Shown here in pieces: positions 11,400 through 54,420 of a stretch of 63,993 nucleotides of DNA. The stretch lies in the IMG/VR virus record IMGVR_UViG_3300027770_000036. One strand, given 5' to 3'. Under the pieces are notes generated by a model that was not told the origin of the DNA, ran no database searches, and was given only the letters and a program-made list of their open reading frames with translations. The number at the start of each line of letters is the position of its first letter. The stretch's first letter is position 1. The stretch is from an uncultured virus (IMG/VR IMGVR_UViG_3300027770_000036) (lineage: Duplodnaviria > Heunggongvirae > Uroviricota > Caudoviricetes). Made by a program: the position numbers and the translations under genes.

Positions 11400-11418
11400 G
11401 GTAACCTCCTTAACTTAT

Positions 11419-23302: not shown

Positions 23303-24820
23303 TTACCCTCTAGGAACATTAGGTATGGTACCTGTCATAGGTCTGGTCTGTGGTTTCCCTACCGTATTGGTACCTGGTGCAGTCTGTGGTTCTCCTACCG
23401 TGCGGTTTCCTGGTGTGGTCTCTGGTTCTCCTGCCATACTGGTGCCTGATGTAGGGTGCGATCTTGGGCGGTGGTTATCTGCGTAGGCGGATAAGGGAGT
23501 CTGCGGGCCTCCTGCTCTAGTAAGGCTTTTAACCTCACTGAGGCCTTTATATTTAGCCGCCTCCATAGCGGCAGTTAATCCCCTTGATGCTAGTGTGGTT
23601 CCCGTGGCTCCCTCGGCCCCAGCAACAAGAGATTTGCCCAGCCCAGTAGGATCTGTATAAGGTAAAGAAGCCTTACCTATACCTGTTAAGTATTTTGCCG
23701 TACCCTCTCCTTTTGGGATAAAGGATTTAGCTAAGGCAGTGGCATCCGAAAAACCACCACCTAAACCGCCGCCGCCAGCGACGCTGGTAAGGCCTCCAGC
23801 GGCATAGCCTGTCCCCATGCTGGCTAGTCCCACCATTGCAGCGTTGTCTGGGGCAATGCTATGGTTGTGTTGGGGTGCTAGGTTAGGGGGCGCGTCTTGG
23901 CCGTATTTAGGTCCACCTCTTCGATACTCCCAGTCAGGAGTCTGGGCTCTATAATCTTGCTTCTCCTTCTCTTGCGCCTCCGAGATCCGGTGTGCCTCGT
24001 ACTCTCGATTCTCTTGGTGCTGCTCAGGCGTCCAGCTGGCTCGCCTCATCGCCTCAATGGAACCTTGCGGTATAGGCGGCGTGGGCTGTTTCATAAAAGG
24101 AGCCGGAGTACCTTTAGGGGGACCCCCAATCAGAGCTCCTAGTGGTCCTCTAGCCGGTGCCGTAGACATCGGGTCACGCGCCCCCATACTAGGCCCGCTA
24201 TTTCCTGGAAAGGTGCCTGCAGCAGGGGGATTATTTATTGGGGCGAACCTAGCAAATCCCTGTGTGGGGTCGAGGGAGACAGGATTTGGTCCATTCAAAT
24301 CTACATGGCGGTCGCCTGCAGAAAAATTAGACGGGGTTGCATATGCAGCCCTCTTGCCCATCATAGCTCCAAAGGCTGCTGCCTTTTTAAGTGACCCAGA
24401 TCTAGATCTCATACCCATCAATGATCTGTTAACAGCTTCCATAGGATTCCCCTCGGGCCCCCAATCATCAATAGGCCCTGGGGACTTAAGCCTTAAGGTC
24501 TCAAGAATGCCTGATCTAGGCTTGAGGGGATATTGTAGGCTGTAGTAATTTGGTAGATTTTCTACGTCATCAAGATCTTTGTCATTGGGCGCAGCAGATA
24601 TACGCTTAATAGCTTCCTCAGGAGTGAACATATCTCGCATGTCCCTGTCTGCGTGAAAAAGCAACTGGGCTTTGCGCCTAGCCGCTTCAGCGGTGAATAA
24701 GCGAGTTAGGTCTATCATCTTTTGCTTATTCAAGCCCCAGGCTGGACCACCATCTGCCCATCTATCATATTCGCCATACTCATCATCGCCGCCGTAAGCT
24801 GCTTTTTCAAATCTGTTCAT
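23303..24820 (-). CDS. MNRxEKAA-family probable virion cargo protein
   Basis: MNRFEKAA start; internal LKKAAAFGAMMGKRAA; low-complexity C-terminus. Confidence 0.65.
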   Translation of the reverse strand: MNRFEKAAYGGDDEYGEYDRWADGGPAWGLNKQKMIDLTRLFTAEAARRKAQLLFHADRDMRDMFTPEEAIKRISAAPNDKDLDDVENLPNYYSLQYPLKPRSGILETLRLKSPGPIDDWGPEGNPMEAVNRSLMGMRSRSGSLKKAAAFGAMMGKRAAYATPSNFSAGDRHVDLNGPNPVSLDPTQGFARFAPINNPPAAGTFPGNSGPSMGARDPMSTAPARGPLGALIGGPPKGTPAPFMKQPTPPIPQGSIEAMRRASWTPEQHQENREYEAHRISEAQEKEKQDYRAQTPDWEYRRGGPKYGQDAPPNLAPQHNHSIAPDNAAMVGLASMGTGYAAGGLTSVAGGGGLGGGFSDATALAKSFIPKGEGTAKYLTGIGKASLPYTDPTGLGKSLVAGAEGATGTTLASRGLTAAMEAAKYKGLSEVKSLTRAGGPQTPLSAYADNHRPRSHPTSGTSMAGEPETTPGNRTVGEPQTAPGTNTVGKPQTRPMTGTIPNVPRG

Positions 24821-24904
24821 TTTAATGTCCTGTAAAAGTAATGATGCTGGAATTTACTGCATATCATGGCAGAAGTCAAACCTATACGAAGCTAAGAGTT
24901 AAAG

Positions 24905-27298: not shown

Positions 27299-27930
27299 AA
27301 GTTAACCTTAAAAAGTTCATTTAAGTCTTTTGGATTCTTTGTATCATACTCAACTGTTCCAGGTATTCTACCATATCTGTTTACAAGTCTGTAGTTGCTG
27401 TCGTATAACTTCTGGCCAGTACTATACTTGCGTGCCTCTATTGCTTCGTCCCACGGTTTACCCTTGTCTATGTTTTTTCTTTTAACCCTCTCGAGACGCT
27501 GCCTTAGTAAATCCTGCAAAGGAGTAGTAACCAAGACCCTGTTAGGATACTTTGCAAGCTGACTTCTACCTAGCAAAGATAACTGAGTCCCCTCAACAAC
27601 TGCGCCGTCCTTAGCTGAATCAAGCATCTCCGTAGCCAGTCCCCTAGCTGCGTTTAGATACCTTCTTCGCTCTGGAGATCCTGCTATAGTATGACGGAGT
27701 TCTGGGTCACTATCCATCATAGGTTTCCATTTAGGGTGATCATCAATAGACAATATCGGAAGCTTTAACGTCTCGCCAAGGCTCTTAGCAACCGTAGACT
27801 TACCCGCACCGCTATGACCGCTAACAAGAAACACCCTACGTCCTGCATCATCTACAGGGTCTAAGCCTAGAGCTACTGCCCTCTTCCCCATCATAGCCCC
27901 AAAGGCTTCTGCTTTTTCTAGTCTGTTCAT
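27295..27930 (-). CDS. P-loop nucleotide kinase-like protein with MNRLEKAEAFGAMMGKRA leader
   Basis: GHSGAGKSTVA, SIDD, VVEG. Confidence 0.7.
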   Translation of the reverse strand: MNRLEKAEAFGAMMGKRAVALGLDPVDDAGRRVFLVSGHSGAGKSTVAKSLGETLKLPILSIDDHPKWKPMMDSDPELRHTIAGSPERRRYLNAARGLATEMLDSAKDGAVVEGTQLSLLGRSQLAKYPNRVLVTTPLQDLLRQRLERVKRKNIDKGKPWDEAIEARKYSTGQKLYDSNYRLVNRYGRIPGTVEYDTKNPKDLNELFKVNL

Positions 27931-29699
27931 TAAAATAACCTTCTAGGTGTCTTACTCTCTATAACAGGAGAGCTTGCAGGCGGAACAGGCTGCATGCCTC
28001 TAGGCACCGGTGGTGTGTTAATCTGACCCCCTGCGCCAGGTAAAGGTCTTTGGCTCTGCTGCCCTTCTTGTCGAGTAAACGTTGCACCCGGTTGTATGAC
28101 TCCGTCTTTCATGGTACCTCTAGAAGTACCATACGCTCCGTTACCTCCGGCGGCATCTCTAACCATCTGACCTTTACGCTGTAGCTCCATACGAGCGTTA
28201 TGAATCTGAATATCTCTAGCGCTTGGCTGAGGAGCTACAGGAGCTTCACCAGCAGCCATCTTCCCCATCATAGCCCCGAAGGCAGCTGCCTTAGCGATAG
28301 TCCCCTTTTTGCTAGGCTTCGCTGACGGAGCTAAGTCTAGATAAGGATAGTACTCATCAAACAGCTTCTGCCTGTTAGTCGGGTCATTATACTCAGGGAA
28401 TGTTGACTGCTCAAATAGCGAATGCACAACATCAGGTTCTGTATTCATTTTCCATGGTAGATTTTTATCCACCATATCTGTGTAGTTAGGTGGATAGTCT
28501 TTTATATCTTCAGGTTTTCTATATGGATTTTTTACTACACCGTAGTTCCTGTCCAAGTAATGGTTCAGGATATTATTAACGCCTTCTCTTGTATGGTCAT
28601 CGCGCAAGGCCATCTCTTTTTTCCAATCGTTTGCGTCCCACTCCTCTTCGTTATCACTGCGTAGGTACTCAGCGTCTCTAGCCTTATCGATCATGCCTTG
28701 GGTGCGAAATGGAAACCAGCTTGGCCCAAAGGCTGCTGCCTTTTTAAGGCCGGGCTTGGCACGGTAGACGGCGTTTTCAAAGATATCTTCGCCGCCAATA
28801 GGACTGTCTCCCTCTTGTTTGTACCGATCTGGATACCATCGGGGCAGCATATAAGAGGCAAGCATAGCCCTACCTTCTGGAGTTGCCAATGCTTGATTCG
28901 CTGGGGAGTCTCGATCTTCTCCGTACTCCTCGTTAAGCTTAATGGCTGAAAACATATGATCGTAGTCTTTTCTCGGGGAGGAGAACAGCCTAGTTAGAAG
29001 TCTAGGCGACATTGTTCTCTCAGCGTCTAGTCTCATAGAGGTGGCGCCGTCGTCAGGTCCAAACAGAGACTTAATACCAACAGGCTTATCTAGTTTCTTC
29101 CAGAACAGACCTGCGCTCTTACCCATCTTTATATCTTCTATTTTAATGCCTCCGCCCTTTAACTTCGGGTTTAAAATTTCAGGATGAGTTATCTGCTTCC
29201 AATCTTCGGGAAAAGGCATTCCATGGCTCTTCATGTGTCCTTGAAGTCCCTTATAGTAAGGTGTTCTAGTGTCTTCAAATACGTCTTCATTACCTAGTGG
29301 CGCGTCTGTACCATACGAATAACGGTCTGCTAACATTAAGGGCAGAAAATCAGACGCCCAGATTGCTCTACCGATAGGTGACTCCAGGCCGACACCTCCT
29401 TTGCCTGGGTCAGGATCTCTATCAACTACTGACTGCATTCCTGCTAGCATATTTTTATAGTCTTTACTTGGAGACGAGAACAGCCTAGTTAAAAGCCTAG
29501 GCTCCATTGTCCTGTATGCTCCTAATCTGGCGTGAACAGTTGGCCTATCAAAGTCTACAGGATCATGTGAGTCTGCTGGGTCGTCCTCATTACCCCATAT
29601 AGCCTTAATACCAACAGGCTTATCTAGTTTCTTCCAGAATAAGCCTGCAAGCTTACCCATAGCCGAATCAAAAGATGCTGCTTGTTCAAATCTGTTCAT
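27930..29699 (-). CDS. MNRxE-family protein with an internally duplicated domain
   Basis: AAGGAG SD before ATG 29699 (MNRFEQAASF); GLFWKKLDKPVGIK...PRLLTRLFSSP occurs twice; repeated KAAAFG linkers. Confidence 0.7.
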   Translation of the reverse strand: MNRFEQAASFDSAMGKLAGLFWKKLDKPVGIKAIWGNEDDPADSHDPVDFDRPTVHARLGAYRTMEPRLLTRLFSSPSKDYKNMLAGMQSVVDRDPDPGKGGVGLESPIGRAIWASDFLPLMLADRYSYGTDAPLGNEDVFEDTRTPYYKGLQGHMKSHGMPFPEDWKQITHPEILNPKLKGGGIKIEDIKMGKSAGLFWKKLDKPVGIKSLFGPDDGATSMRLDAERTMSPRLLTRLFSSPRKDYDHMFSAIKLNEEYGEDRDSPANQALATPEGRAMLASYMLPRWYPDRYKQEGDSPIGGEDIFENAVYRAKPGLKKAAAFGPSWFPFRTQGMIDKARDAEYLRSDNEEEWDANDWKKEMALRDDHTREGVNNILNHYLDRNYGVVKNPYRKPEDIKDYPPNYTDMVDKNLPWKMNTEPDVVHSLFEQSTFPEYNDPTNRQKLFDEYYPYLDLAPSAKPSKKGTIAKAAAFGAMMGKMAAGEAPVAPQPSARDIQIHNARMELQRKGQMVRDAAGGNGAYGTSRGTMKDGVIQPGATFTRQEGQQSQRPLPGAGGQINTPPVPRGMQPVPPASSPVIESKTPRRLF

Positions 29700-29721
29700 A
29701 TTAAGCTCCTTATGCTGCATC

Positions 29722-31263
29722 TTATCTGAACTTCTTACCTGCGAGGTATGGAAGTACTTGGGCCGCATTACTGTTCTGCTGATTACTAATCGCTATGCGC
29801 TGAGCAGGTACTCCATTAGGATCCTTAGGAGGATTAGCCCTATTCATGTTAGCCATCTCGTTATAGTGCTTTTCGTTTTGGATAGAATCTACCTTGTCAG
29901 AGACAGGTTTCGGTCTCCATGAGTCTGCAGGAGTAGTGTCAATACGGGGGCTCTTCATGCTCCCGTCCCTGTTGTAGCCAGCCTTGGGGTTATTATCACG
30001 GGAAATACCTGTGGAGCCATGCTGGGTAAACCCTATTGGCTCCCTAAGGCCAAATAGCTGACTATTTGCCTCTCCGTAACTATTGCGCATTCGTGCGTCT
30101 TCGGAAGGGCTGTTAGCCTCATGATTAATCCCAGGGACGCCATATAGCTGGCTACCTCCTTGGGCTCCAGGGTCTGCAGCCATCTTGCCCATCATAGCTC
30201 TGAAGGATGCTGACTTGGGTGAAAAGCTTCCAATCATGCCTCCGCCTAGGACTCCTAGTAAACCACCAGCTAAACCGTGTAATACAGACCCTCCTAGTAC
30301 TCCTCTACGCTTCATCATTACATTACCTTTATCGTCAACGTAATAATGCTTTTCATTGCCTTTATCATCTACATAGCTTCTTCTATGCTCCTCTGGTCCA
30401 GTTGTCTCAAGAGCGTCTAGGCCACTAGATTCATAGTTTAAATGACCAGGACGAATAGCGCCGTAAAGAGCTCCGCCCAGGGCTCCTAGACCGCCCCCTA
30501 CAAGCGCCCCTCTGCCGGCTCCCTCTAGATTATTAATATTGCCAGCCATTATCATAACTCTTGCACTCTTTCCCATACTATTACCCATCATGGCTTCACT
30601 AGAAGTCCTTAGTAGATTTAATTTTTTTTTATGTGGGTCTTGTGCACTAGTAGGAAGCCAGTTAATAATCTTGTCGTAATCCTCTAAATCTTTTTCTTGG
30701 ATATCATATTTAGGGTCGTTGCTGGGAGTTCTTAAGGCCTCCTCTCTGTTTAATTGTTTTGCGTGGTCCATGATGGCGTCTTCAAAGTCCTTCATGTGTT
30801 CTTCACCCCACGTCAAAGAGAAACGTGCGTTACTGCCTGGCTCATAGCGTTCCTTGTCTGAATACAAATAGGATCCCTTCCCGAGATCTACTACTCCACC
30901 AGCCATCTTACCCATCATTGCTCCGAACGCTGCTGCTTTATCTAAATTGTTCATAGCCTGCTCCTTATTAGTGCTTCCTACTACGGCTGGAATAGGTAAG
31001 ACGCTAGCCATAGACGGATATCCCGCTGTCTCTCTAAACCTTTTGAGTCTAGTCTCTAGTAGCTCCTTTTGTTGCTGGCTCTTTAACCAGGCGCTAGCTA
31101 TTAAAGACAGATCTGTCATTTCTTTATCTATATTCTGCTGAGACTTTATAGCCTCCTGGGCGTCTGCTAAGTGCTTTGGTAGCGCTGCTAAAAGGTGGCC
31201 TCTCTCGCTCCACTTTGGAGCCAAGGCCGTCAGGTCATTAGAAGTCTTTTCAAACCTGTTCAT
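29722..31263 (-). CDS. MNRxEK-family protein with glycine zippers
   Basis: MNRFEKTS start; internal MNNLDKAAAFGAMMGKMA and KSASFRAMMGKMAA; GGGLGALGGALYG helices. Confidence 0.7.
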   Translation of the reverse strand: MNRFEKTSNDLTALAPKWSERGHLLAALPKHLADAQEAIKSQQNIDKEMTDLSLIASAWLKSQQQKELLETRLKRFRETAGYPSMASVLPIPAVVGSTNKEQAMNNLDKAAAFGAMMGKMAGGVVDLGKGSYLYSDKERYEPGSNARFSLTWGEEHMKDFEDAIMDHAKQLNREEALRTPSNDPKYDIQEKDLEDYDKIINWLPTSAQDPHKKKLNLLRTSSEAMMGNSMGKSARVMIMAGNINNLEGAGRGALVGGGLGALGGALYGAIRPGHLNYESSGLDALETTGPEEHRRSYVDDKGNEKHYYVDDKGNVMMKRRGVLGGSVLHGLAGGLLGVLGGGMIGSFSPKSASFRAMMGKMAADPGAQGGSQLYGVPGINHEANSPSEDARMRNSYGEANSQLFGLREPIGFTQHGSTGISRDNNPKAGYNRDGSMKSPRIDTTPADSWRPKPVSDKVDSIQNEKHYNEMANMNRANPPKDPNGVPAQRIAISNQQNSNAAQVLPYLAGKKFR

Positions 31264-31273
31264 GGTTTGTTCC

Positions 31274-31696
31274 TTACGCCGCGTCTTGGTTAGAAACTAT
31301 ACTTAAGCCGCCGTTGTCTAGTCTACGCCTTAAAGACCTAAGCTCATCCTCTAATTGAATGACCTTTGTTCTTAGCTCATCGTTCTCTTTACGGCAGTTA
31401 CGCCTGTCGTTGTAGAGTTCTTCTATATCCTTCTTCAGGTTCTTCATCTCTTCCCTTAAGAAGGTTTGCATATCTTTAGACGACTCCACGATGAGTCTGT
31501 ATTCACTGAATAAAGAGTCATTCTCATGGTGGTCTAGCCGCTGCTGCTTAAGGATTATCTCTTTGGTCTTTATATCAGAGGCTTTTTCTGACTTAAGCTT
31601 GTTTACATAAATAACAGAAATAGCTCCCGCAAGGGAGCCCACTGCGCCAAATAGAATACTTATCGCAGATAGTATGACGTCTAGCTTTAAGTCCAT
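31274..31696 (-). CDS. N-terminal TM plus coiled-coil protein (possible lysis or membrane accessory)
   Basis: Hydrophobic residues about 7-31, then a heptad-rich helix. Confidence 0.6.
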   Translation of the reverse strand: MDLKLDVILSAISILFGAVGSLAGAISVIYVNKLKSEKASDIKTKEIILKQQRLDHHENDSLFSEYRLIVESSKDMQTFLREEMKNLKKDIEELYNDRRNCRKENDELRTKVIQLEDELRSLRRRLDNGGLSIVSNQDAA

Positions 31697-31712
31697 GGTT
31701 AGTTACCTTAGG

Positions 31713-32573
31713 TTATTGAAGGTCTGAGGTAGGAGTGGTGGGCATAGTAAACGGAGGTCGAGCTAAATGCTTATACTGATAACGGTCACCAAAAGGCAAC
31801 TCAGGGCGAGCCTGTGAAGGAGGTATAGGCCAACCTTTAGATTCTAGGCCAGGATGCAAGTTTATTTTTCCTTTTGGATCTCCCGTACCTAAAAACTGTT
31901 GCACATGGCCTTTAAATCCTACGGGGTCTGGAACTCTATACCCGAGGGGATCAGAAAAATTAATGTTATCCTCCAGTTGCTTTGACCTAGAAGCCTGTGC
32001 TTGCTGCTCATCATACGGGCCTGGCTTTGGAGGTTGCCAAGGCTTAGGGGTTGGGGCGTAGTTTAACGGAGTCCTAAGTGCTCCTGAGTCTGAGGGAGCA
32101 CTATGTCGTTCCCTAGGCGGGCCGTAATCAGCAGGGACAGGAAACTGCTCCATTCCAGGAGTATACAGAATTGAGTTAGAACCAGAGTTAGGTAGCTTAG
32201 GCTTATAAACTTGTTCAGGTGCTTTACGCTGAGCTGGTGCTGGCACAGGAGGCACAGGCCCTTCAGCCATCTTAAATAATAAGCTACGAAGACTAGCAAT
32301 CTTATTAGGCATAGGGTCTGAAGACATTCTTCTAATTACCTCTCCCACTCCTGCTCCGGTAGCCATACCTAAGCCGGAGCCCGCAATGGCTCTCAGTACT
32401 CTGTCCTTTTTAGTGCCTTTACGTAAGTCATAGCCGATTGTTCCTAACCCACCTATAAGGGCACCATATAATCCGCCAATAAGGTGTCTATCATCTAAGC
32501 TATCTGAGGAAGGCCACAACGCAGCCTTACCCATCATAGCCCCAAAGGCCGCTGCTTTCTCAAGCCTGTTCAT
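31713..32573 (-). CDS. MNRLEKAAAFGAMMGKAA-family protein
   Basis: Canonical leader, glycine zipper, Pro-rich tail. Confidence 0.7.
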   Translation of the reverse strand: MNRLEKAAAFGAMMGKAALWPSSDSLDDRHLIGGLYGALIGGLGTIGYDLRKGTKKDRVLRAIAGSGLGMATGAGVGEVIRRMSSDPMPNKIASLRSLLFKMAEGPVPPVPAPAQRKAPEQVYKPKLPNSGSNSILYTPGMEQFPVPADYGPPRERHSAPSDSGALRTPLNYAPTPKPWQPPKPGPYDEQQAQASRSKQLEDNINFSDPLGYRVPDPVGFKGHVQQFLGTGDPKGKINLHPGLESKGWPIPPSQARPELPFGDRYQYKHLARPPFTMPTTPTSDLQ

Positions 32574-32594
32574 TGTTGTACCCTTGGTTAAAGA

Positions 32595-33197
32595 TTAGAA
32601 ATCGTATGAAAGAGTTGGCGCTAGCGTAGGCCTCATATAAGGATTATTCATGCCGCTGTGCCTAGCGTACTCCCTCATTGCATTGTCCTGGTTATACACA
32701 GGGTCTGATAAAAGGTCTCTCTTAGTTATCTCTCCAGGTCCAAGCCTAGCCATCATATCTTTCAAACCCTCGTTAGTGGATTTTCTTTGGAAGTAAGTGG
32801 TAAGAGCCCCTAAGCCTCCTAGAGCAGTACCTCCAGCCAAAGCGCCTGCTAGTGATCCAACTAACGGCTCTTTCATAGAGCGACCAAGATTAAAGCCCAT
32901 TGCACCACCACCAAGAGCGCCAATCGCCCCAAGACCAAGACCGCCCACTATAGCTCCTTTAAGAGGGCTACTTAACATCTCGTGTACTGGAGTTCCATAG
33001 GATTCAAAAATCCTGGGCAACCACCTACTCTCTCCTTTTTCTACTTTTTTAAGCTCATCTGGAGTAAGCCCTTCCCTTCTATTAGCCACGGGAAGATGGG
33101 TCTGAAGGGACAAAGCGTTGTCTATAGCTTTGCTAGAGTTGGCGGACTTATGTATCAAGTACATTAACTTAGATGCTGCTTTCTCACGTCTGTTCAT
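32595..33197 (-). CDS. MNRxEKAA-family glycine-zipper protein
   Basis: MNRREKAAS...HKSA; two GxxxG-rich helices. Confidence 0.7.
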   Translation of the reverse strand: MNRREKAASKLMYLIHKSANSSKAIDNALSLQTHLPVANRREGLTPDELKKVEKGESRWLPRIFESYGTPVHEMLSSPLKGAIVGGLGLGAIGALGGGAMGFNLGRSMKEPLVGSLAGALAGGTALGGLGALTTYFQRKSTNEGLKDMMARLGPGEITKRDLLSDPVYNQDNAMREYARHSGMNNPYMRPTLAPTLSYDF

Positions 33198-33212
33198 TGC
33201 TATCTCCTTTGT

Positions 33213-33338
33213 TTATTTCTGGTAGAAGCTTTTTAAGTCGGACATTATACCGTTAACCTGTTGAGTACTCATAGAGGGCTTGGCTGGAGCGGGATTGTTT
33301 GAGCCAGCTGAGAGTATGATGTCTAGCTTAAAGTCCAT
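33213..33338 (-). CDS. 41-aa chimeric mini-ORF
   Basis: MDFKLDIILSA start matches MDLKLDVILSA of 31274..31696; AGGAG SD upstream. Confidence 0.5.
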   Translation of the reverse strand: MDFKLDIILSAGSNNPAPAKPSMSTQQVNGIMSDLKSFYQK

Positions 33339-33341
33339 GGC

Positions 33342-33842
33342 TTATTCTCCTGGTCTAACTATTTGGGCATTACGTACTGTTCTAGGTCCAGGGTGGGCGG
33401 TAGGAGAGTTATGATAAAAGTTGAGTGGATCTTGACCGGCTGGATCTATCTGAGCATTGCTGAAGGATCTGCCAGGGCCGGCAGGAGGTTGAGATAGCAT
33501 AGGGTTCTTAGGTGCTGTTTTTTGTGCAAAAGAGCTTGGTGAAGGTTTCTGCTGCTGTTTACCGCCAAACGCACTCTGCATGCCACTAATATCTTTATTG
33601 CTGAGTTGAGGTCTTGTCTGGGGGTTAGCTTGGAACGTAGGTTCATACCTATGTACGGCCCTTTCAGCCATTAGCGCTTTTTCATCAACCGGCTCTTTCA
33701 AGCCATTAAAGCCATTAATGATCTCATCAGCATCCTGCCTCTGGGCTGGTGTTAGGGTTCTGCGGCCTGTACCTACACCCTGTTCAGCTGCCGCCTTACC
33801 CATCATGCGTCCGAAGTATGCTGCTTTCTCAAGTCTGTTCAT
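33342..33842 (-). CDS. MNRLEKAAYFGRMMGKAA-family protein
   Basis: Canonical leader plus a disordered body; its SD/start (aggagatagcaatgaacag) is shared with 33197. Confidence 0.7.
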   Translation of the reverse strand: MNRLEKAAYFGRMMGKAAAEQGVGTGRRTLTPAQRQDADEIINGFNGLKEPVDEKALMAERAVHRYEPTFQANPQTRPQLSNKDISGMQSAFGGKQQQKPSPSSFAQKTAPKNPMLSQPPAGPGRSFSNAQIDPAGQDPLNFYHNSPTAHPGPRTVRNAQIVRPGE

Positions 33843-33927
33843 TGCTATCTCCTGGATTAAAAACTTAGTCTATGTGTATAAAATATAAACTAATCTACCT
33901 TCGTAGTACATAGTTAGTTATCTCTTA

Positions 33928-37208: not shown

Positions 37209-37538
37209 TTACTTCATATTTAGTTTCATGATCACTAGTCCTGCAGCGACTATAAGTGACCCTAACACTACATACTTATTAACATTTAGTCCAAAGAAAA
37301 CAAGAGGTATTACATAATCTACAAATATAACAGCAAACGCCCAGCATAGGCTAAAGAAAAAGATGCGCTCTTTGTTGTCTAAAACTCTTACACCAGTTAC
37401 CCACATGGAGGATATACACAGACCTATTAGTATGGAGACTACTGGATAATACCAGGAGTTTCTAGTCTCAGAGTTATAACATAGCATTACAGATGTGGAG
37501 TAAAGGGTCATGACAGCAAGAATGATTGCACATTCCAT
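37209..37538 (-). CDS. Small four-TM membrane protein (SMR/DMT-like size)
   Basis: 109 aa with four hydrophobic helices. Confidence 0.6.
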   Translation of the reverse strand: MECAIILAVMTLYSTSVMLCYNSETRNSWYYPVVSILIGLCISSMWVTGVRVLDNKERIFFFSLCWAFAVIFVDYVIPLVFFGLNVNKYVVLGSLIVAAGLVIMKLNMK

Positions 37539-37648
37539 ATCATTGGCACCTCATTAAAGTAGTTACTTAAATGATAACCTAGGATAGGAGTGTCTGATAG
37601 CTAAAAAAGATCATTGGAGTACGGGAGGTTAGTCCCGTACTCTAATGA

Positions 37649-37861
37649 TCAATAGGAGCATCTCCTATTATGCCCTTCTAAGGGGTCGTACTCTTCCCCT
37701 AGGTAATAGTTTAACATCTTCTCGTTAATCTCTATCTCTTCCAACTCGTCCAGCTCGGCGGTCAGCCGGCGGATGTCCTTTTCTACCTTCCAACTGCGCC
37801 GCTGCTTGGTAAGTAGATCGAGACTCTCGAGTATTTGTTCTCTTCTGTCTTCAATTTTAAT
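37649..37861 (-). CDS. 70-aa coiled-coil protein, probable ATT start
   Basis: AAGGAG-TAGTGCC-ATT, then an open frame IKIEDRREQILESLDLL...DIRRLTAELDELEEIE that fills the cassette. Confidence 0.55.
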   Translation of the reverse strand: MKIEDRREQILESLDLLTKQRRSWKVEKDIRRLTAELDELEEIEINEKMLNYYLGEEYDPLEGHNRRCSY

Positions 37862-37938
37862 GGCACTACTCCTTAAAATACCTACCTAGGATTAGGCGCC
37901 ACCTTTTAGGTGACTAATAAACCTATCCTTTACATACT

Positions 37939-37967
37939 ATTATGACGCAATTATGGATTGGATTAAG
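37939..37967 (-). promoter_or_regulatory. Cassette promoter, consensus CTTAAT-N17-CATAAT with GCGT before the -10 box (18 copies)
   Basis: Plus-strand attatgac(g/a/t)c-N-attaa(g) near 11184, 11467, 11800, 12368, 37939, 38416, 38805, 39390, 39879, 40495, 41421, 41720, 42247, 42619, 43245, 43962, 44430 and 55485. Confidence 0.85.
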
Positions 37968-38043
37968 TGGAGACGTCTCCACTATGTGATAGCTAAAAAA
38001 AAGAAACACACCATACCCGAAGGCATGATGTGCTTTGCTTGGA

Positions 38044-38337
38044 TTAGGATAACTTATCCTTAATCCAAGCCGACACCACAACCCAGCTAGTGCTGGATAT
38101 GGCGTCGTTATATAGGTCGCAGGATGCTACGTATCCCCACTCTGCATCCCACTCATTTAGTAGGACAGCCTCGAACAAACCTTCTAGGGTGTCTATAGAC
38201 ACCGCTATACCCGGCTTACCCCTACTCGGGACAAGCTCTGCAAGGTTTGAGGTATAGCTCCTAACCTTCCCAACATTTAACTGTCTGACCGCGTCAGCCA
38301 GCTTTGCCGTGGGGAGCAAATGCGACTTGTTGTTAAT
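38044..38337 (-). CDS. Hypothetical protein (cassette gene), probable ATT start
   Basis: AAGGAGG-ATATC-ATT is in frame with the ORF-track frame 38044..38319. Confidence 0.65.
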   Translation of the reverse strand: MNNKSHLLPTAKLADAVRQLNVGKVRSYTSNLAELVPSRGKPGIAVSIDTLEGLFEAVLLNEWDAEWGYVASCDLYNDAISSTSWVVVSAWIKDKLS

Positions 38338-38475
38338 GATATCCTCCTTGTAACAACAACCTCTATAGGATTAGGAGCCACCTTTTAGGTGACTAATACC
38401 TATCCTTTCCATAATATTATGACGCACTTATAGATTGGATTAAGGAATGGGTGATAGCTAAAAAAAACCCAACCG

Positions 38476-38595
38476 CTACTTGTAGTAGCGGCTAGGTGAG
38501 GTATTGTGGCTCAAAGAGCACACAATACCTATTAGTAGCATAAGGACGCATGGCCATGCGTCCAACAAATAAACAGGGGAAACTACAATCTCCAT
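38476..38595 (-). CDS. 39-aa hydrophobic peptide
   Basis: GAGGAG SD; MEIVVSPVYLLDAWPCVLMLLIGIVCSLSHNTSPSRYYK; its end overlaps the terminator. Confidence 0.5.
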   Translation of the reverse strand: MEIVVSPVYLLDAWPCVLMLLIGIVCSLSHNTSPSRYYK

Positions 38596-38855
38596 AACAA
38601 TCTCCTCGTTAAGACTGTTCATTAAAGTAAATTTGAAAAGAGGTAAGAATGCGCCTTAAAGGTGGAAGGTCTATTCCCTTACATAGGGGAATAGAAGCAC
38701 GTATGATTGGCATACCTGTGCGAATTCCCTATCCTGTAGTCCCGCCGAACTACCCTTAGTTTGCTCCATAGCTCTGCGCATCTTACCCCTACCGGTACCA
38801 CTCTATTATGACGCACTTATGGATTGGATTAAGGAATGGGTGATAGCTAAAAAAA

Positions 38856-39385
38856 GACACATGAGACCGGGGTTTAACCCGGTAACCTCATGTATCCCTC
38901 TTTGTGGAAGTTTCATCCACACCCGTACCCGGCCGGTAGCCGCCCGTCTGTTGAGTCAGCGGGAACCTGCAGTTTAACGTCATGCATGGACGCCAGCTTT
39001 AATTGAAGCAGCTTAACGTCCTGCTGATGACGGCCCTTCCCTCCAGGTGCGCAGCAGTATCGCTGATACTGCTTAGAATCTCCCGTGGGTATAGGGAGAA
39101 GCGTGGAAGTCTCATCCACACCCCATTTTAGCCACAGTGGGTTACTGCTTGTTGTTCCGTCACCGGGTAGCAGCATCTACTGATGCCGCCCCACAACCAC
39201 AAGTCAACTAGGTGACTTTGTATGCCCCCTGCTAGTGGAGTACATACACCTTGTGGAAGGGCCAGAGTTTTCGTTATCTCTGGAACGCTCCTGGGGCGGT
39301 ATTACCAACCTGATAGAAGAATCAGTTGGGCTTACGAGTACTTTTAACGCCACTGTCTCGAGGGGGCGGATACCTATCGGTATCA
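38856..39385 (-). ncRNA. Candidate modular ncRNA A (pseudoknot and T-loop modules)
   Basis: Own promoter and terminator, no SD-led ORF, structural modules shared with 43372-43956. Confidence 0.65.
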
Positions 39386-39496
39386 CTATATTATGACGCA
39401 CTTATAGGCTGAATTAAGTGAAGGCGTCTCCACTATGTGATAGCTAAAAAAAAAGCGCACCATACCCGAAGGCATGATGTGCTTTTTAAAGGAACA

Positions 39497-39802
39497 CTAG
39501 TACTCTAGGTACAGCGTTCCTCTATCTTTGTACTTCTCCGTTAACCGGAGATTGGCGGCCTTTATGGCCTCCATACCCTGAAAGCGAAGGTTCCAAGTTA
39601 CCGCGGCTGCTTCTTCAAGCAAGCCTACCGCGGGCCTCTTTCCGGAGGCCTTCCTGAAGGACTCTCGAAAGTCCTCCTTGAAAGTTTGCCGGAATTCTTC
39701 AAAGGCCCAGTTCATCCTGGGCGCCTCCAGTGGAGGCCCCTCGTCCGCATATACTGGGGGCTGAATAACCCCAGCAGCTAAGAACATTAACAGAGTAAAA
39801 AT
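39497..39802 (-). CDS. Hypothetical protein with hydrophobic N-terminus, probable ATT start
   Basis: AAGGAG-TAGTGCC-ATT lies 15 nt upstream of, and in frame with, ORF 39497..39787. Confidence 0.65.
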   Translation of the reverse strand: MFTLLMFLAAGVIQPPVYADEGPPLEAPRMNWAFEEFRQTFKEDFRESFRKASGKRPAVGLLEEAAAVTWNLRFQGMEAIKAANLRLTEKYKDRGTLYLEY

Positions 39803-39929
39803 GGCACTACTCCTTAAAATAACTACCTAGGATTAGGCGTCATCTAATAGATGACTGATAAACCTATCCTTCCATACTATTATGACGCACTTATAGATTG
39901 GATTAAGGAATGAGTGATAGCTAAAAAAA

Positions 39930-39956
39930 GAGCAGTTTAACGTCCTGCTCAGGACG
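39930..39956 (-). terminator. H-type pseudoknot directly before the U-tract (also at 40558, 41483, 42669, 43372, 44014)
   Basis: Minus strand CGTCC-TGAGCA-GGACG-TTAAAC-TGCTC-TTTTTTT; stem 1 CGTCC/GGACG, stem 2 GAGCA/TGCTC. Confidence 0.7.
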
Positions 39957-39967
39957 GGGTTTAAACA

Positions 39968-40402
39968 CTATTTTGGGTTAGGTCTAGTTCGAAAATCTGG
40001 GCATGTCATCCAAGCTCGCACGCTTTTTAATGTGTGCGTTCTGTCAAACTTTTCCAATTTTCTTTGACCGACCGCCACAGGGTCTGCGCAATCCATCGCC
40101 GGGCTCCCCGAAAGCATCGGGCCAATTTTTGCCCATCCTCTTGCTAGCCTAAACTCTTCTTCTACATGTCTGGGCCACGCTTCTTCGAGGGCTAGACATA
40201 ACTTTTCAGCTGCTGCATCCCCAGACTTTTCCCGGAGGTATTCAACGCAGCAGAAGAATGAATTATACCCGTGTGCCGTGGCATACCGCCACGACTCCCC
40301 TAAATGGGCAACTAGGACATTTCCCAGAGTCTCCCTACCCCTATGATCATAGGGGGACATAGTGTATTCATTAACCGAATTAGAAACATTTTCAATACTC
40401 AT
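39968..40402 (-). CDS. Hypothetical protein (cassette gene)
   Basis: AAGGAG SD, 144 aa. Confidence 0.75.
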   Translation of the reverse strand: MSIENVSNSVNEYTMSPYDHRGRETLGNVLVAHLGESWRYATAHGYNSFFCCVEYLREKSGDAAAEKLCLALEEAWPRHVEEEFRLARGWAKIGPMLSGSPAMDCADPVAVGQRKLEKFDRTHTLKSVRAWMTCPDFRTRPNPK

Positions 40403-40588
40403 AACACTATCTCCTTAAAAGGTAAACCAAAACAACCCACGAAAAAGCTCGCAGGATTGTTCCTGTAGTAGTTATAGCTACAGGTGATCACTGTATTATG
40501 ACGCATATGTGGGGTGGATTAAGTGGAGACGTTTCCACTATGTGATAGCTAAAAAAAGAGCAGTTTAACGTCCTGCTCAGGACGGGGT

Positions 40589-41344
40589 TTATTTCTTCTT
40601 TGTAGGAGTCGTTGGCTCCGGCTCCGGCTCGGGTTCTGGTTTTAAGTTACCGAACTTACCCTTCAGCAGTTCAATCAAATGACCCCTTTCAGAGTCCAGT
40701 GACCCAGGGAAAGAACGGCCACCATCCAAGTTCCTAGGACTGCACAGTGCTGCCATCGTCGTATACAACGACTCTAACCCGTAGAGCTTCAGGTTCTTGG
40801 CTGCTATTAATAGCCTGCGGGTAGAGAGCTGGAATTGGAACCTAAGGTCATTACTATTTATCCTCCTCCTCACATTCGTAGCTATATCGACTAGCTTACG
40901 AGCGTAGGCTGGGCTGACGTCGGTTTTAACGACTATCAGAGCTGCCTCCTGCTCCTCTGATAGATAATAAAGCTCGATAACATGGTGAAAGATATCTTTC
41001 ACCCTTACGGGAAGGACCACAAATCCGTCGCTGCTTGTATCAACAACGAATACCACCACGGCCTTCTTTTTTCTAAAGGACTTGAGGGCTTCAATGACGT
41101 CCTCGTCCAATAGGTCGGCACGAATGGCTACCGCCATCCTATCCTTTACCAGCCCACCCCTTATTAGTTCCACAGAGTTGGAGGTCATGACCCTCTCTAC
41201 GCTCCGGCCAGTCCTTTCGGACCAAGCATCTAACATGGCATTCTTTCCGCATCCTGTAGGGCCTGAGACGAGTATAAGTCTCGTCTCTTCGGTGTTGGTA
41301 ACCTTTAGAAGGCATTCCAACTGAGGAGTCATAATATATTCCAT
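40589..41344 (-). CDS. MoxR/CbbQ-like AAA+ ATPase, partly degenerate
   Basis: GPTGCGKN Walker A, YLSEEQEAALI, LSTRRLL sensor-2 region; Walker B is unclear. Confidence 0.65.
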   Translation of the reverse strand: MEYIMTPQLECLLKVTNTEETRLILVSGPTGCGKNAMLDAWSERTGRSVERVMTSNSVELIRGGLVKDRMAVAIRADLLDEDVIEALKSFRKKKAVVVFVVDTSSDGFVVLPVRVKDIFHHVIELYYLSEEQEAALIVVKTDVSPAYARKLVDIATNVRRRINSNDLRFQFQLSTRRLLIAAKNLKLYGLESLYTTMAALCSPRNLDGGRSFPGSLDSERGHLIELLKGKFGNLKPEPEPEPEPTTPTKKK

Positions 41345-41802
41345 GTGATTCCTTTAACATAGACGTCAAAGAATAGCTCTCTGACCAGCCCCCGTTTTTA
41401 CAGGTACGGGTAACCAATAGATTATGACGCGTTTATAAGTCCAATTAACGTAATGAGATAGGATGTGTGATAGCTAAAAAAAGAGCAGTTTAACGTCCTG
41501 CTCAGGACGGATGGTTAGACCCCACCGGCGCACCCACACCTGCAACTGCAAGTGTGGCCTTTGTTGGGGAGGAGTCAACAACCTCCCCCTCCGCCTTTTC
41601 TTCCACCTTCTCTAGATGCCGCCATGGTATTTTCCTTTCGTCAAAAAAGGGGGCATACCTGCCCATGCAGAAATAGGTGCCATCCACTATAGATGACTAA
41701 AGACTATTCCTTACAACTCATTATGACGCGTTTATAAGCCCAATTAACATAACGAGATATGATGTGTGATAGCTAAAAAAAAGCAGGATGATCCTGCTCG
41801 GG

Positions 41803-42180
41803 TTACCCCTCTTGACCCACGACCCCCCACAGGCTGAACGGAGCTATCTCCTTCCAGTCGGTGATGTCGTTTGACCGCATGGGCTTCCACCCATTGGCGC
41901 GGTCCAAGCACATTGTAATGTGCTTGCGGGCGTTCCGACTAGGAACGCCCGTATCGACTTCAACGGCCATTACGCCGTCGAGCCGACCGACACTAACTAC
42001 TTTTAGTTCGTGTCGTTGACCATTGAGATCCTGTGCCATACTGTTACATATGGGAAGAAGGTCAACGGTCATATGGTGGCATATGACCTCGAAGTGTTTG
42101 GGCACTTCGAGGTTTGCGTGCATCCACGCCACCAAGATGGATACACTGTCCTTTTCAAGGACGCAAGCCGTGTAGGCCAT
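41803..42180 (-). CDS. 2H phosphoesterase (cyclic phosphodiesterase fold)
   Basis: Two HxT motifs (HHMTV, KHITM) and KPMRSNDI; AGGAG SD before ATG 42180. Confidence 0.75.
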   Translation of the reverse strand: MAYTACVLEKDSVSILVAWMHANLEVPKHFEVICHHMTVDLLPICNSMAQDLNGQRHELKVVSVGRLDGVMAVEVDTGVPSRNARKHITMCLDRANGWKPMRSNDITDWKEIAPFSLWGVVGQEG

Positions 42181-42338
42181 TTTTAGTCTCCTAAAAATAA
42201 GACGAGGCGCCATCTATTTGATGACTGGTACCTATACTTGCACCTTATTATGACGCACTTGTTGTATGAATTAAGGCAGTGTCTTTGCTACCTAATAGCT
42301 AAAAAAAACACACCATACCCGAAGGCATGGTGCGTGTT

Positions 42339-42551
42339 TTATAAATCAACATAGACAAGGCTAAGCAATCCCTTGTCTATAAGTGATGTTAAGTGGGCAT
42401 TGGTAACCCCCTCAATCGTTTTGGCAGCATCCACAAGGGCTATGTGAGCCTTCTTACGGTTGCTGTGCCCTGCCGTCAGGACAAAGAGGTTTCCGCCTCT
42501 TCGGAGCCTGGCTATCCAGGCGAACCCCAGAGGGGTTGATGGGTTTATCAT
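42339..42551 (-). CDS. 70-aa hypothetical protein (cassette gene)
   Basis: GGAGG SD before ATG 42551; the ORF-track start lies inside the leader hairpin. Confidence 0.7.
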   Translation of the reverse strand: MINPSTPLGFAWIARLRRGGNLFVLTAGHSNRKKAHIALVDAAKTIEGVTNAHLTSLIDKGLLSLVYVDL

Positions 42552-42701
42552 GGTAACCTCCGTTAACTGAGGATTAGGTGCCATCGGCTAGATGACTGAT
42601 AACCTATCCTTTCATACTATTATGACGCGCTTATAGGTCGGGTTAAGGAGGAGTGATAGCTAAAAAAAGAGCAGTTTAAAGTCCTGCTCCAGGACTCTAA
42701 A

Positions 42702-43196
42702 CTACTCTAGGTGTAGAGCTTCGTACAGCTCCCTTCTATCGAGCTCCCTCTGAGTTGTCTTTTCCAAGTCTACCTCGCACCACGTAAATATTGACCCTGC
42801 AACCCAGATGTCAAAACCACCAAAATATTCAACCTTTACGTTGCCCACTTTACGATCATCAGGCAACTTTAGCTTCCAAGTATCTGGAAGCATAAAGCAT
42901 GCGAGCCACTCATCTCCTCCGGCGGGTCCGGTAGAGTCGACCCACATTATACAGGCAGGGGCCACCCCGGGCTCACCCTTCAAGTGCAGCTCCAGCTCAC
43001 CCTGCAGGTGCAGCTCCCCCTGCAGGTGCATCTTATCTCGTAGCTCAGTAGCTACGAAGTCTATAACGTCCCTGGCGTCCGCCTCCCCCTTCAAGGTAGG
43101 AAAGAATATAGCATTGGCCTTTTCAAGGGCCAATTTCAATTCCTTCTCCTTTGCGGAGCAAACAGCTGCTCCATCAACCGCCGTAAACTCAAACAT
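42702..43196 (-). CDS. Hypothetical protein (cassette gene)
   Basis: AAGGAG SD; internal HLQGEL repeat. Confidence 0.75.
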   Translation of the reverse strand: MFEFTAVDGAAVCSAKEKELKLALEKANAIFFPTLKGEADARDVIDFVATELRDKMHLQGELHLQGELELHLKGEPGVAPACIMWVDSTGPAGGDEWLACFMLPDTWKLKLPDDRKVGNVKVEYFGGFDIWVAGSIFTWCEVDLEKTTQRELDRRELYEALHLE

Positions 43197-43371
43197 AGAT
43201 TCTCCTTGGTGTTAAAGAAAGTCTTTTGCAACCGATATCACTATATTATGACACGCTTACGATCTGAATTAAGCTGCGACAAAAACACGTCGCTGGCGAC
43301 GAGAGTGTGACGTAATGTGACCGTCACATTATGTTACTTGACAATGAGCTGGTTACTGATAGCTAAAAAAA

Positions 43372-43956
43372 GAGCAGCTTAACGTCCTGCTCAGGACGGC
43401 ACCTTCCCTCAAGGTGCGAGGAATATCTCCCGTGGGTATAGGGAGATATATGGAAGTTTCATCCATACCCCATTTATGGTAGGCGGGTTACCTTAAAAGA
43501 AGAAGGGGTTTCCACCCTATTCCCCGGCTCTCACCGGGTGTCCCACATATTTTAAGAGTGTGGCGTTCTCTAAGCAGTTTATAGTCCTACTCAGGACGCG
43601 CACCTCACTAAGGTGCCGCTAGTGTTACGTCCGTAGTTACTGGACGTTTGTGGAACTTTCATCCACACCCACTTACCTACGGTTGGTTACCGCCCACTGT
43701 TCTTAGGCCGTGGGGCCTTCAGTCCGTAAAAATGTAGACGCAGGACCTAAACCTCACCACAAGGCATTACACTGTAAAGTGCTGGTCCCGCTTAGGTGTG
43801 TGGCTTAATATCCTACAGGTGTGCGCCACATAACTACTTGCGTAGAATTATCAGCGCGCACACCAGGTTAACCTAGATATTAAGTCGAATTCCTCCAAGC
43901 GGCCGTGTCAGATCGGCAGGGCTGAAGGCCTTCGTCCTTAATATCTAGGCGGTATC
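43372..43956 (-). ncRNA. Candidate modular ncRNA B (~585 nt)
   Basis: No ORF of 60 aa or more; own promoter and terminator; 13-bp stem 43872-43884/43937-43949; two tandem pseudoknot/T-loop modules. Confidence 0.75.
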
Positions 43957-44044
43957 ACTCTATTATGACACGATTATGCTCTGAATTAAGGGGGTGCATA
44001 ATAGCTAAAAAAAGAGCAGTTTAACGTCCTGCTCAGGACGGTGG

Positions 44045-44341
44045 TTAGGGCTTTAACTCGAATTCCTTCAAGTCCCCTAATACCACACACTGCAGCCGGT
44101 ACCAGGTATTCCTGGCATCCTCTGAGTGTGAGAACTTAAGTCCACCTTGGCAGATGGAAAGAAAGTCTTTCCATTTGCTTATAGTGATCTTCTTCCCCAT
44201 GGTGTGGCCACCGTAGGGCGTCCAATACTCCGGCATATGCCGGAGTATTTTCTGCTCTAGCTCCCGGGCGTCGGCAGCCTCCTTGTCCATCAACTGGACA
44301 AGGTCTTTTACAAAAACCAAATTTTGTTCTAAAGTGGTCAT
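44045..44341 (-). CDS. Hypothetical protein (cassette gene)
   Basis: GAAAGGA SD before ATG 44341 (MTTLEQ). Confidence 0.7.
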   Translation of the reverse strand: MTTLEQNLVFVKDLVQLMDKEAADARELEQKILRHMPEYWTPYGGHTMGKKITISKWKDFLSICQGGLKFSHSEDARNTWYRLQCVVLGDLKEFELKP

Positions 44342-44453
44342 GGTATTTTCCTTTCTTAAAAGGGGGCATACCTGCCCTACAGGATTAGGCGTCATCTAAT
44401 AGATGACTGATAACCTATCCTTCCATACTATTATGACGCACTTATGGATTGGA

Positions 44454-44819
44454 TTAAGGCTTGATGCCGCCTATGTCTGTACGCACAATATCGTGCTCAG
44501 ATAGCTCAGACCAATATATCTCCAAAGCTTCAGTCTCTTCTATAGCTTCGAACTTATGGTTTAAGCCAGGAGGTATCTTAATGCACTCGGTAGGCCTAAG
44601 CATGATGCTGCTCTTTATAGTGCCATCTGAGTTGTAGCAGCTGATCATTAGCTTGCCTGAGACTATATAGAATTGATTCCACTTATGCTGGTGAAAGTGA
44701 TTAGAGCAGTATCCGCCTTTGAGAATATGTATGTGGCATATCTGAAAGGAGTTGTCCAAATGAATGATATGGTTGCGGCCCCATAGCTTCTCTTCTTGTC
44801 TTACAGCTAGTACGTCCAT
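44454..44819 (-). CDS. Cupin-domain protein
   Basis: KLWG, CSNHFHQHKWNQF, IPPGLNHKF. Confidence 0.8.
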   Translation of the reverse strand: MDVLAVRQEEKLWGRNHIIHLDNSFQICHIHILKGGYCSNHFHQHKWNQFYIVSGKLMISCYNSDGTIKSSIMLRPTECIKIPPGLNHKFEAIEETEALEIYWSELSEHDIVRTDIGGIKP

Positions 44820-54045: not shown

Positions 54046-54420
54046 CTTACTTACCCTCCTGGCTAATGTTAAATGACAGCCCCATTGCTGAGGCTGTCGA
54101 AGTTAAACTGCCCCCCGCTCAAACCAGTCTTCAGAACCGGGAGCACCGGTATTGGACTGTTGTTCACCCGGTTAAGGGTTAGCCGAACAGGGGCCTGGAA
54201 TACTACTTAGGAGTTACCATTTGTGCCCCTAAGCTTCTCTACCCATTGAAGGGCAGCTCTTACTGCAGCGCATACTACACCCTAGCCGTCTAAGCTAAAT
54301 AGCGGTAGTGGCTAGCCACTACGTCTATCTCACTTGTTGACTGGCATCAGGAATTATAAGCGCTACCGCAGGTCCTGCAAAGCTATGGAGAGAACGCCAT
54401 AGCCCTATCCGAGGAAAGGC

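Follow-up and report, generated by a model that had tools for sequence, protein, structure and literature searches.

Unit A in an array of early cassettes

The stretch of DNA analysed here (63,993 nucleotides, referred to as the window) comes from an uncultured lake phage and makes up the second half of a virus record of 125,993 bases that is 61% complete. The genome contains phage genes for a myovirus baseplate, a sigma-like protein, and an RNA polymerase subunit; the best cultured match of this subunit, in phage Arash, was 23.5% identical, and the ribonucleotide reductase was less than 50% identical to those of phages of many hosts. On the minus strand, from ~37.6 to 44.4 kb, lies an array of cassettes, each composed of a common promoter-like motif, cargo, a terminator, and a conserved box. 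The motif heads 17-18 cassettes genome-wide, and it probably serves as a promoter from which the cassettes are transcribed. Given that the boundaries (promoter and terminator) are repeated and the cargo is exchangeable, the array is of the type described for PeSL cassettes.

Unit A (minus strand, as are all features of the array described below) is an ORF-less cassette of ~535 nt at 39386-38850, with its own promoter motif and terminator. The array-wide promoter-like motif lies at 39390-39417, the RNA is predicted to start near 39384-39386, and a 5'-terminal hairpin is predicted at 39369-39384; the same start was found in the related RNAs L112, L113, L114, and L139 (see below). The 5' body that follows (39275-39368, with a hairpin at 39305-39329) is common to the RNAs of relatives and is absent from B, the second modular unit of the array; its predicted fold is weak by itself (z -0.5). 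Four local hairpins, predicted only and mostly private to A, occupy 39170-39283 (39262-39283, 39220-39247, 39201-39218, and 39170-39189). Next come T module 1 (39101-39150), in which an H-type pseudoknot is joined through a 2-nt linker to a 5-bp stem with a 7-nt T-loop (39103-39119), and the K module (39035-39099), comprising a hairpin with a 9-nt loop (39079-39099), an inserted hairpin (39054-39072), and a second hairpin (39035-39049). Two coremin-like pseudoknots follow: copy 1 (39007-39032) has an 8-nt loop, and copy 2 (38968-38992), of which L113 and L114 contain identical copies, has a 7-nt loop and a different second stem. Downstream are a hairpin (38943-38963) with one pair exchanged on both sides in L113, T module 2 (38902-38945; T-loop hairpin 38904-38920), where two portions of an L113-type RNA appear to have crossed over, and the intrinsic terminator (38843-38896), consisting of a hairpin, a U-run, and the box that is conserved after all terminators of the array.

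The longest Shine-Dalgarno-led ORF comprises 5 codons in A and 3 codons in B. An 87-aa ORF (39176-38913) overlaps A; it has no Shine-Dalgarno sequence and its start codon lies within a predicted hairpin. A 65-aa ORF begins at 39401, within the promoter, and its first in-transcript start is likewise not preceded by a Shine-Dalgarno sequence. The initial annotation of this DNA, made from the letters and the ORF list, had stated that the short ORFs over A lack such sequences, and this was borne out for both. Neither ORF gave a PHROG or Pfam match.

The global folding z-score of A was -6.2 or -4.9 in two runs. We rejected this score as evidence for A, given that the neighbours scored equally well or better: ten cassettes near A, protein-coding ones included, ranged from -3.0 to -11.9. 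Because neighbouring cassettes fold as strongly, the case for structure in A rests on covariation. Strong folding is a property of the whole early array, mRNAs included (median z -3.2 over 23 folding windows, compared with -0.5 over 46 outside it). In the protein-coding early cassettes (37600-44400 and 11800-12000, minus strand), hairpins stand almost wall to wall, and z was as low as -11.9 in the cassettes at 44009-44423 and 41777-42240. In two further cassettes, 37989-38409 and 38454-38798, Shine-Dalgarno-led coding comprises 7 and 39 codons and z was -9.3 and -5.3, respectively; the former was represented by RNA contigs in all four runs placed (see below), and both are possibly further non-coding RNAs, unrelated to the modules of A and B. 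Other features were noted elsewhere in the window. A stretch without an ORF and with many hairpins (54060-54420, minus strand) follows the ORF at 55152-54421, and 8-10 ORFs within 24348-33853 have a common short N-terminal repeat, at the start or inside. Moreover, a third kind of small pseudoknot stands at the extreme start of a leader at ~41390-41416 (minus strand) and recurs in L110 (10954-10990) and L111 (10927-10960); by eye, one second-stem pair is changed on both sides in L110.

Parts of the region 37500-44500 were contained in 24 RNA runs, and the contigs of four of these (three from lake water, one freshwater) were placed. Contigs covered A in all four (38879-39370, 38886-39259, 39037-39369, and 38929-39372) and B in all four as well; assembled contigs give neither strand nor level, DNA may be present, and repeats break contigs. 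In three runs, the contig on the 5' side of A ends at 39369-39372, 12-17 bases inside the predicted start, and in three the contig on B reaches only to 43461-43469 and does not include the 3' module. Among the listed pieces of each run, A had the greatest contig depth (167.5, 135.6, 35.5, and 13.2), a quantity that cannot rank genes and hence is no measure of the abundance of A. None of the four runs had a contig on 44424-46500 or 42318-43019, and such holes prove nothing. Also, no joints were listed in the RNA contigs, which has no bearing on DNA mini-circles of the PeSL kind. One run (X2) has a loose contig end that matches a module found in the RNAs of L113 and L112; the RNA region of a relative is hence present in that library too. 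A is likely to be transcribed early.

Modules, covariation, and mosaic make-up

The pseudoknot of the T module has a stem of 3-5 bp, a 7-nt loop, an A-rich connector, and a second stem of 3-4 bp; after it come the 2-nt linker, the 5-bp stem, and the 7-nt loop, which we take, on the known consensus and the examples in PMC2615604, to be a T-loop. When 14 distinct copies were compared, 93.8% of cells were paired and 18 cells were changed on both sides. This pairing was reached by 0 of 500 shuffles, a count that is no probability since the copies are related, and slid controls gave 38-45%. One second-stem pair takes all four Watson-Crick forms, and invariant loop and stem positions lie beside fully covarying ones. 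The T-loop hairpin pattern matched the window four times, twice in A and twice in B (0.01 expected), and among 14 cassettes compared, A and B alone contained such hairpins. When 530 kb of loci were searched with a model of the T module, strong matches were confined to ORF-less units. A "T-loop module" had been proposed in the initial annotation; the T-loop hairpin is indeed present, but the second class of pseudoknot joined to it had been missed. The combined pseudoknot-plus-T-loop module is an uncatalogued fold. The T-module knot was also found without the T-loop hairpin at the extreme start of a leader (55439-55478, minus strand; 13.6 bits, E 0.096), where its second stem covers the Shine-Dalgarno sequence of the ORF at 55438-55178; as the knot descriptor alone gave 1-3 matches in shuffled genomes, this assignment is tentative.

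The K module consists of a conserved hairpin with a 9-nt loop, a variable linker, and a second hairpin, and lies ahead of a coremin-like knot; in L137 it occurs three times in tandem. Its first stem was 97.8% paired, with four of five pairs changed on both sides and no shuffle of 500 reaching this value. Two pieces of alignment did not enter the counts: A3, where the first stem was shifted out of register, and the second hairpin in A5, where the types were misaligned with each other. In the 11 listed copies and the third L137 copy, C at position five of the first loop goes with G at one position of the second loop, and A goes with U; this co-change, judged by eye and with two sequence types only, suggests a loop-loop contact within the module. 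A pattern scan for the K module returned no match, but the pattern would miss the known L112 copy, so that the scan is uninformative. Like the T-loop hairpin, the K module was found in ORF-less units only.

The coremin-like pseudoknot is built from a 4-bp first stem, a loop of 7-9 nt, a fixed spacer, and a second stem of 4-6 bp. It occurs nine times on the minus strand of the genome (0-1 in shuffled genomes), six copies being directly before a terminator U-run and three being internal, without U-runs. Outside A and B, five cassettes end in this knot, one of them at 39931-39956 and the others at 40559-40584, 41484-41509, 42670-42696, and 44015-44040. At these five positions and at 43373-43398 in B, the knot takes the usual place of the terminator hairpin, and it may act there as a pseudoknot terminator. 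One form of the knot was found in 99 viral stretches and in 41 stretches of bacterial genomes (Bacillota, Saccharibacteria, Deltaproteobacteria, Thermodesulfobacteriota, two Flavobacteriaceae, and others), and is near-invariant across phages of 25-59% GC and several phyla. The first pseudoknot is therefore not confined to RNAs of this family, as is apparent from its position before a U-run in six of nine genome copies and its wide distribution in unrelated phages and bacteria.

Among copies, the second stem of this knot varies and the first stem and spacer are constant, the first stem having three invariant pairs and a covarying fourth, outer pair. In 136 distinct contexts, the outer pair, which the search pattern left free on one side, was paired in 106 (shuffles: mean 68.5, maximum 88), and one second-stem pair was held in 132 (mean 120.9, maximum 126); at the next position outward, pairing was not enriched (56, compared with 63.9). 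A run of five U within ten bases downstream was present in 26 of the 136. The nine copies with an 8-nt loop from the RNAs gave a modest signal, with 92.2% paired overall (5 of 500 shuffles) and 90.7% in the second stem; copies with 7- and 9-nt loops have exchanged second stems. By blastn, the B-terminal knot gave eight weak partial matches, which were uninformative, and the knot pattern had no copy in phage Arash.

The knot was observed in several other settings. In L185-L187 (Firmicutes record), four copies each stand just 5' of a sequence resembling the core of a hammerhead ribozyme, so that the knot would be left at the 3' end of the upstream product. The knot lies directly before a DUF2800 RNA in L029 (2341-2525), and after a tRNA and before a manA RNA in L034 (2408-2916). 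In L191 (301-345), the knot, a U-run, and the same post-terminator box are present on a 2.5-kb contig that was binned with Bacteriovoracaceae; the contig is probably phage DNA, and the host hint is at most faint.

Relatives were sought with the cupin gene that borders the array. Of the eight loci recovered, three end at contig edges, and four (L107, L112, L113, and L114) contain an ORF-less modular cassette. In L114, another ORF-less cassette, of 257 nt and without known modules, stands directly after the modular RNA (11223-11480). One relative (L109; genome G001, 190 kb, 92% complete) has no T module anywhere, and its cassette slot is without a modular RNA; the modular RNA is accessory. Of 37 stretches obtained in a metagenome scan for the T hairpin, 31 had no promoter motif, knot, or module context and were set aside as chance matches. 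Two others, L118 and L119, share 98.5-100% identity with the window, and L126 is a repeat of L114; three were new, namely L137, L139, and L117, the last a different, distant phage in which two T modules lie within a tRNA cluster. A looser T-module scan of viral contigs gave 13 stretches, 10 of which were dropped as chance and three were known members of the clade. In total, nine RNAs of ~450-640 nt were compared, the ends of the L137 and L117 RNAs being set by eye. Together they contain 21 coremin-like knots and 16 T modules in varying number and order. The T module is present in all nine; in the L117 RNA it occurs twice, and no coremin-like knot accompanies it. Shine-Dalgarno-led ORFs of at least 30 codons numbered only two among the nine RNAs, and these are mutually unrelated.

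B (43365-43961, ~590 nt) has no ORF of 30 codons and contains two T modules (43648-43695 and 43448-43496), K modules, and two coremin-like knots (43573-43598 and 43373-43398), the latter directly before a U-run. Directly 5' of one T-module type, at ~43690-43720 and also in L107, L113, and L114, there is a candidate fourth knot, a 4-bp hairpin whose loop is able to pair 8 nt downstream; a related hairpin occurs twice in L137. A and B align from 39128-39007 and 43475-43373 (74.8% over 123 columns, E 1e-19), and the alignment runs on through the upstream module to 39150 and 43496. The homology asserted in the initial annotation was thus confirmed, as were the extra pseudoknot (38968-38992) and the extra T-loop module (38902-38945) and, by the covariation in T module, K module, and coremin-like knot, the claim that substitutions keep pairing. 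The description of A as a paralogue of B applies to ~125-145 nt, about a quarter of A; the 5' part of A aligns with relatives, not with B.

The 5' ~115 nt of A are 83.6% identical to L112 (116 columns) and 86% to L114. The block 39033-38903 matches one part of the L113 RNA (88.4%), and 38924-38850 matches a later part, the 3' end of A being identical to that of the L113 RNA at 75 of 75 bases. Judged from these alignments, A and B are mosaics drawn from one pool of modules. Because the overlaps between the blocks of A coincide with the knot core and the T-loop hairpin, shuffling has likely proceeded through recombination in conserved module cores. With nine ORF-less cassettes that have common modules in varying number and order, the earlier view of a structured RNA family of repeated domains is supported.

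A possible role and its rivals

As the best-supported, though still tentative, explanation, we propose that A is a protein-free early cassette RNA that functions in trans as a decay-resistant decoy, tying up a host RNA-degrading enzyme. By this proposal, relatives would exchange knot modules, likely by recombination in conserved cores, and the RNA would be abundant and resistant to decay. A 5'-3' exonuclease, most likely one similar to RNase J, would stall at the knots, leaving nested stable decay products, and would thereby be repressed. We infer stalling, nested products, and enzyme repression by A from analogy with viral RNAs. Watson-Crick pseudoknot variants of coremin are reported to resist Xrn1 (PMC10321173), and Xrn1 to be repressed in vitro through stalling on coremin RNA (PMC5869530); a flavivirus xrRNA is described as blocking bacterial RNase J1 as well (PMC5760640), and xrRNAs as being frequently serial (PMC8374639).

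Several observations count for the decoy. Both knot types stand at transcript ends, six of nine coremin-like copies being before a U-run and one T-type knot at a leader start. The slot that A occupies is an accessory one, shared with small accessory genes and without the RNA in G001, and RNA-library contigs lie on A and B in four of four runs. The multivalence of the nine RNAs, with their 21 knots and 16 T modules, fits a sponge, and strong folding of the whole early array would be expected if decay resistance were under selection. Other observations count against it. Both coremin-like loops of A break the published coremin loop rule, and the 5' hairpin predicted for A would hinder loading at the 5' end. 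In the 12 bases 5' of the 37 modules, A+U content was 0.48 (compared with 0.49) and the unpaired fraction 0.38 (compared with 0.36); these bases are not richer and give no indication of dedicated entry sites. Where it stands immediately ahead of a terminator, a 5'-3' block would shield hardly any RNA, and the knot may serve there as a 3' cap or a termination aid. Finally, two of the 41 bacterial matches are from Flavobacteriaceae, which are not known to have RNase J.

That the T module, and not the coremin-like knot, is common to all nine RNAs also counts against the decoy, and lends support to its main rival, a reading that we consider unlikely yet deserving of attention: the payload would be the T module, with the coremin-like knots serving only as armour. 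The RNA would then be a bait or aptamer for a host factor, such as a tRNA-elbow-reading protein, a defence nuclease that targets tRNA, or a small molecule used in signalling. The confinement of strong model matches to ORF-less units agrees with this, as do the invariant loop and stem positions next to fully covarying ones and the two T modules in the L117 tRNA cluster. Moreover, the arrangement of a 5-bp stem that ends in a T-loop and stacks on the helix of a pseudoknot resembles the T-loop PK domain (PMC2615604). However, no acceptor-stem or anticodon-like partner lies next to the T hairpin, ARAGORN and Rfam gave no tRNA-like or riboswitch match in the window, and the occurrence of the knot half alone in a leader suggests a generic cap. 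Scaffolds receive a lower estimate still: self-assembly like that of manA cages, or a precursor from which small RNAs with functions of their own are cut, appears improbable to us. Short phage RNAs are reported to form defined oligomers via kissing loops (bioRxiv 10.64898/2026.07.01.735769), and the K module has candidate kissing loops; yet these two loops are adjacent and might pair intramolecularly, no two relatives have the modules in the same number and order, a poor fit to a fixed geometry, and no manA match was obtained in the genome.

Two further readings we hold to be quite improbable, and to a like degree. One sees in A a mimic of type III antitoxins, of the pseudo-ToxI kind, whose H-type pseudoknots would neutralise ToxN-like host endoribonucleases. 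Type III antitoxins are H-type pseudoknots, and a phage with an expanded pseudo-ToxI array that escaped ToxIN has been described (PMC5086642); in A, two knots lie 40 nt apart, and the second stem varies among copies with first stem and spacer fixed. Against this, neither A nor B matched ToxI at E 10, tandem near-identical repeats are absent and unrelated modules intervene, and a knot that is near-invariant in several phyla and from 25 to 59% GC fits badly with the narrow specificity described for these antitoxins (PMC5086642). The other regards the RNA as a by-product, cassette-end elements that are transcribed and were piled up by boundary recombination, with no job in trans. The array is PeSL-like and shuffling (PMC2839356), both knot types also serve at mRNA ends, a near-complete relative is without the modular RNA, and neighbouring mRNAs fold as strongly. 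The confinement of the T-loop hairpin and K module to ORF-less units speaks against a by-product, as do covariation that spans all four Watson-Crick pairs at one position, internal knots without U-runs, and retention of the T module in the distant, tRNA-carrying phage L117. That A codes for an 87-aa or 65-aa protein is very improbable indeed. The near-identical record L118 has both ORFs intact but does not provide independent evidence; they are without Shine-Dalgarno sequences and PHROG or Pfam matches, no ORF is common to the nine RNAs, and B has none of 30 codons.

Beyond this locus, the decoy reading raises the possibility, which we regard as somewhat speculative, of a class of phage early genes in which nuclease-proof modules are recombined into custom RNA decoys against host RNA decay or RNA-sensing defences. 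With the same reserve, such a class might combine one module shared with plant-virus xrRNAs and one new pseudoknot-plus-T-loop fold, and correspond, at the level of RNA, to accessory anti-defence proteins. Should bacterial exonucleases stall at the knots, the xrRNA strategy of plant and animal RNA viruses would extend to DNA phages, and a phage would inhibit host RNA decay by RNA rather than by protein. The modules are 25-50 nt long, cleanly covarying, and synthesisable, and could be used as small caps that stabilise bacterial RNA; the pseudoknot-plus-T-loop module lends itself to structure determination. In addition, the family illustrates the evolution of non-coding RNA through module shuffling among close relatives.

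Comparison with known RNAs and systems

At gathering thresholds, Rfam models gave no match in the window; at E up to 10, the region 37500-44500 gave seven sub-threshold matches. Among these was a 3' UTR pseudoknot of plant viruses, placed on copy 2 (19.1 bits, E 4.4), which serves as a lead only. Covariance models ignore pseudoknot pairs and may miss short knots. No self-cleaving ribozyme or riboswitch of Rfam was among these seven or among 12 matches in six related loci, and ARAGORN found no tRNA or tmRNA in the window. At E 10, wcaG (RF01761) and manA (RF01745) gave no match in the genome, nor did Proteo-phage-1 (RF03044) and STAXI (RF01728) match; ToxI (RF02519), absent from A and B at this threshold, gave three weak matches elsewhere. 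The region 37500-44500 had no blastn match among cultured phages. Literature searches covering open papers in PubMed Central and the main texts of bioRxiv gave no description of an RNA of the A type or of the knot in phages; one could stand in the supplements of preprints or of large RNA screens. The GUCCY-hairpin (PMC2864571) was considered and rejected, the rows examined showing a different hairpin.

The closest likeness is to coremin. The knot has the same three invariant first-stem pairs and the same first six spacer bases as coremin/xrRNA-C, on the basis of the motif printed in PMC10520033; its loop pairs with the spacer end by Watson-Crick pairs as described for coremin/xrRNA-WCC (PMC10321173), and repeated copies in non-coding RNA are a further point of likeness to coremin and the BNYVV ncRNA3 that it produces (PMC5869530). 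In contrast to coremin, the knots here have 7-9 nt loops and a second stem of 4-6 bp, and occur in a DNA phage, also directly before terminators; their resistance is putative. The published xrRNA-C rule is a loop that starts with pyrimidine-G (for 4- and 6-nt loops, larger ones being less well defined), whereas copy 1 has A first, copy 2 has A second, and the common phage form has G third; nor do these loops show the xrRNA-WCC feature of G first in a 4-nt loop. In coremin as printed, a second hairpin directly follows the spacer; in A, a hairpin (38943-38963) starts 4 nt downstream of copy 2, whereas copy 1 has none and leads through a 14-nt linker into copy 2.

The wcaG RNA (RF01761; PMC2864571) is also a phage RNA of unknown function with small tandem modules. 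In a few alignment rows its first module begins like a coremin-type knot, and its slots seem exchangeable; however, it is described as a 5' UTR element of marine cyanophages and A is a stand-alone 535-nt unit, and no T-loop module was present in the wcaG rows examined. Flavivirus 3' UTRs and sfRNA (PMC8374639, PMC5760640) likewise contain independently folding knots in series; the folds differ, and sfRNA is a remnant of genome decay, whereas A has its own promoter and terminator and shuffled modules. Pseudo-ToxI of phage TE and type III antitoxins (PMC5086642, PMC3475682) are also non-coding RNAs with repeated small H-type pseudoknots, the former in a phage, but A has no ToxI match, no tandem unit repeats, and mixed module classes.

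The PeSL cassettes of T4-type phages (PMC2839356) show the same promoter-to-terminator early array with repeated boundaries and exchangeable cargo; unlike in the PeSL description, some cargo here is RNA only, and shuffling also takes place inside the RNA, at module cores. The T module resembles the T-loop PK domain of 23S rRNA and of the FMN and cobalamin aptamers (PMC2615604) in having a T-loop on a 5-bp stem directly after a pseudoknot helix; here, however, the second stem is of 3-4 bp and formed from a 7-nt hairpin loop, not a 2-bp helix formed from a UA-handle bulge. Because a defining feature failed in each case, we do not assign the A RNA to coremin, wcaG, or the type III antitoxins, although it may still work as a chain of xrRNAs. 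Taken together, these comparisons identify A as an uncatalogued modular phage non-coding RNA: viral non-coding RNA made from tandem knots was already known, and what is new here is the second knot class (the T module), the mosaic map, and the RNA-library cover.
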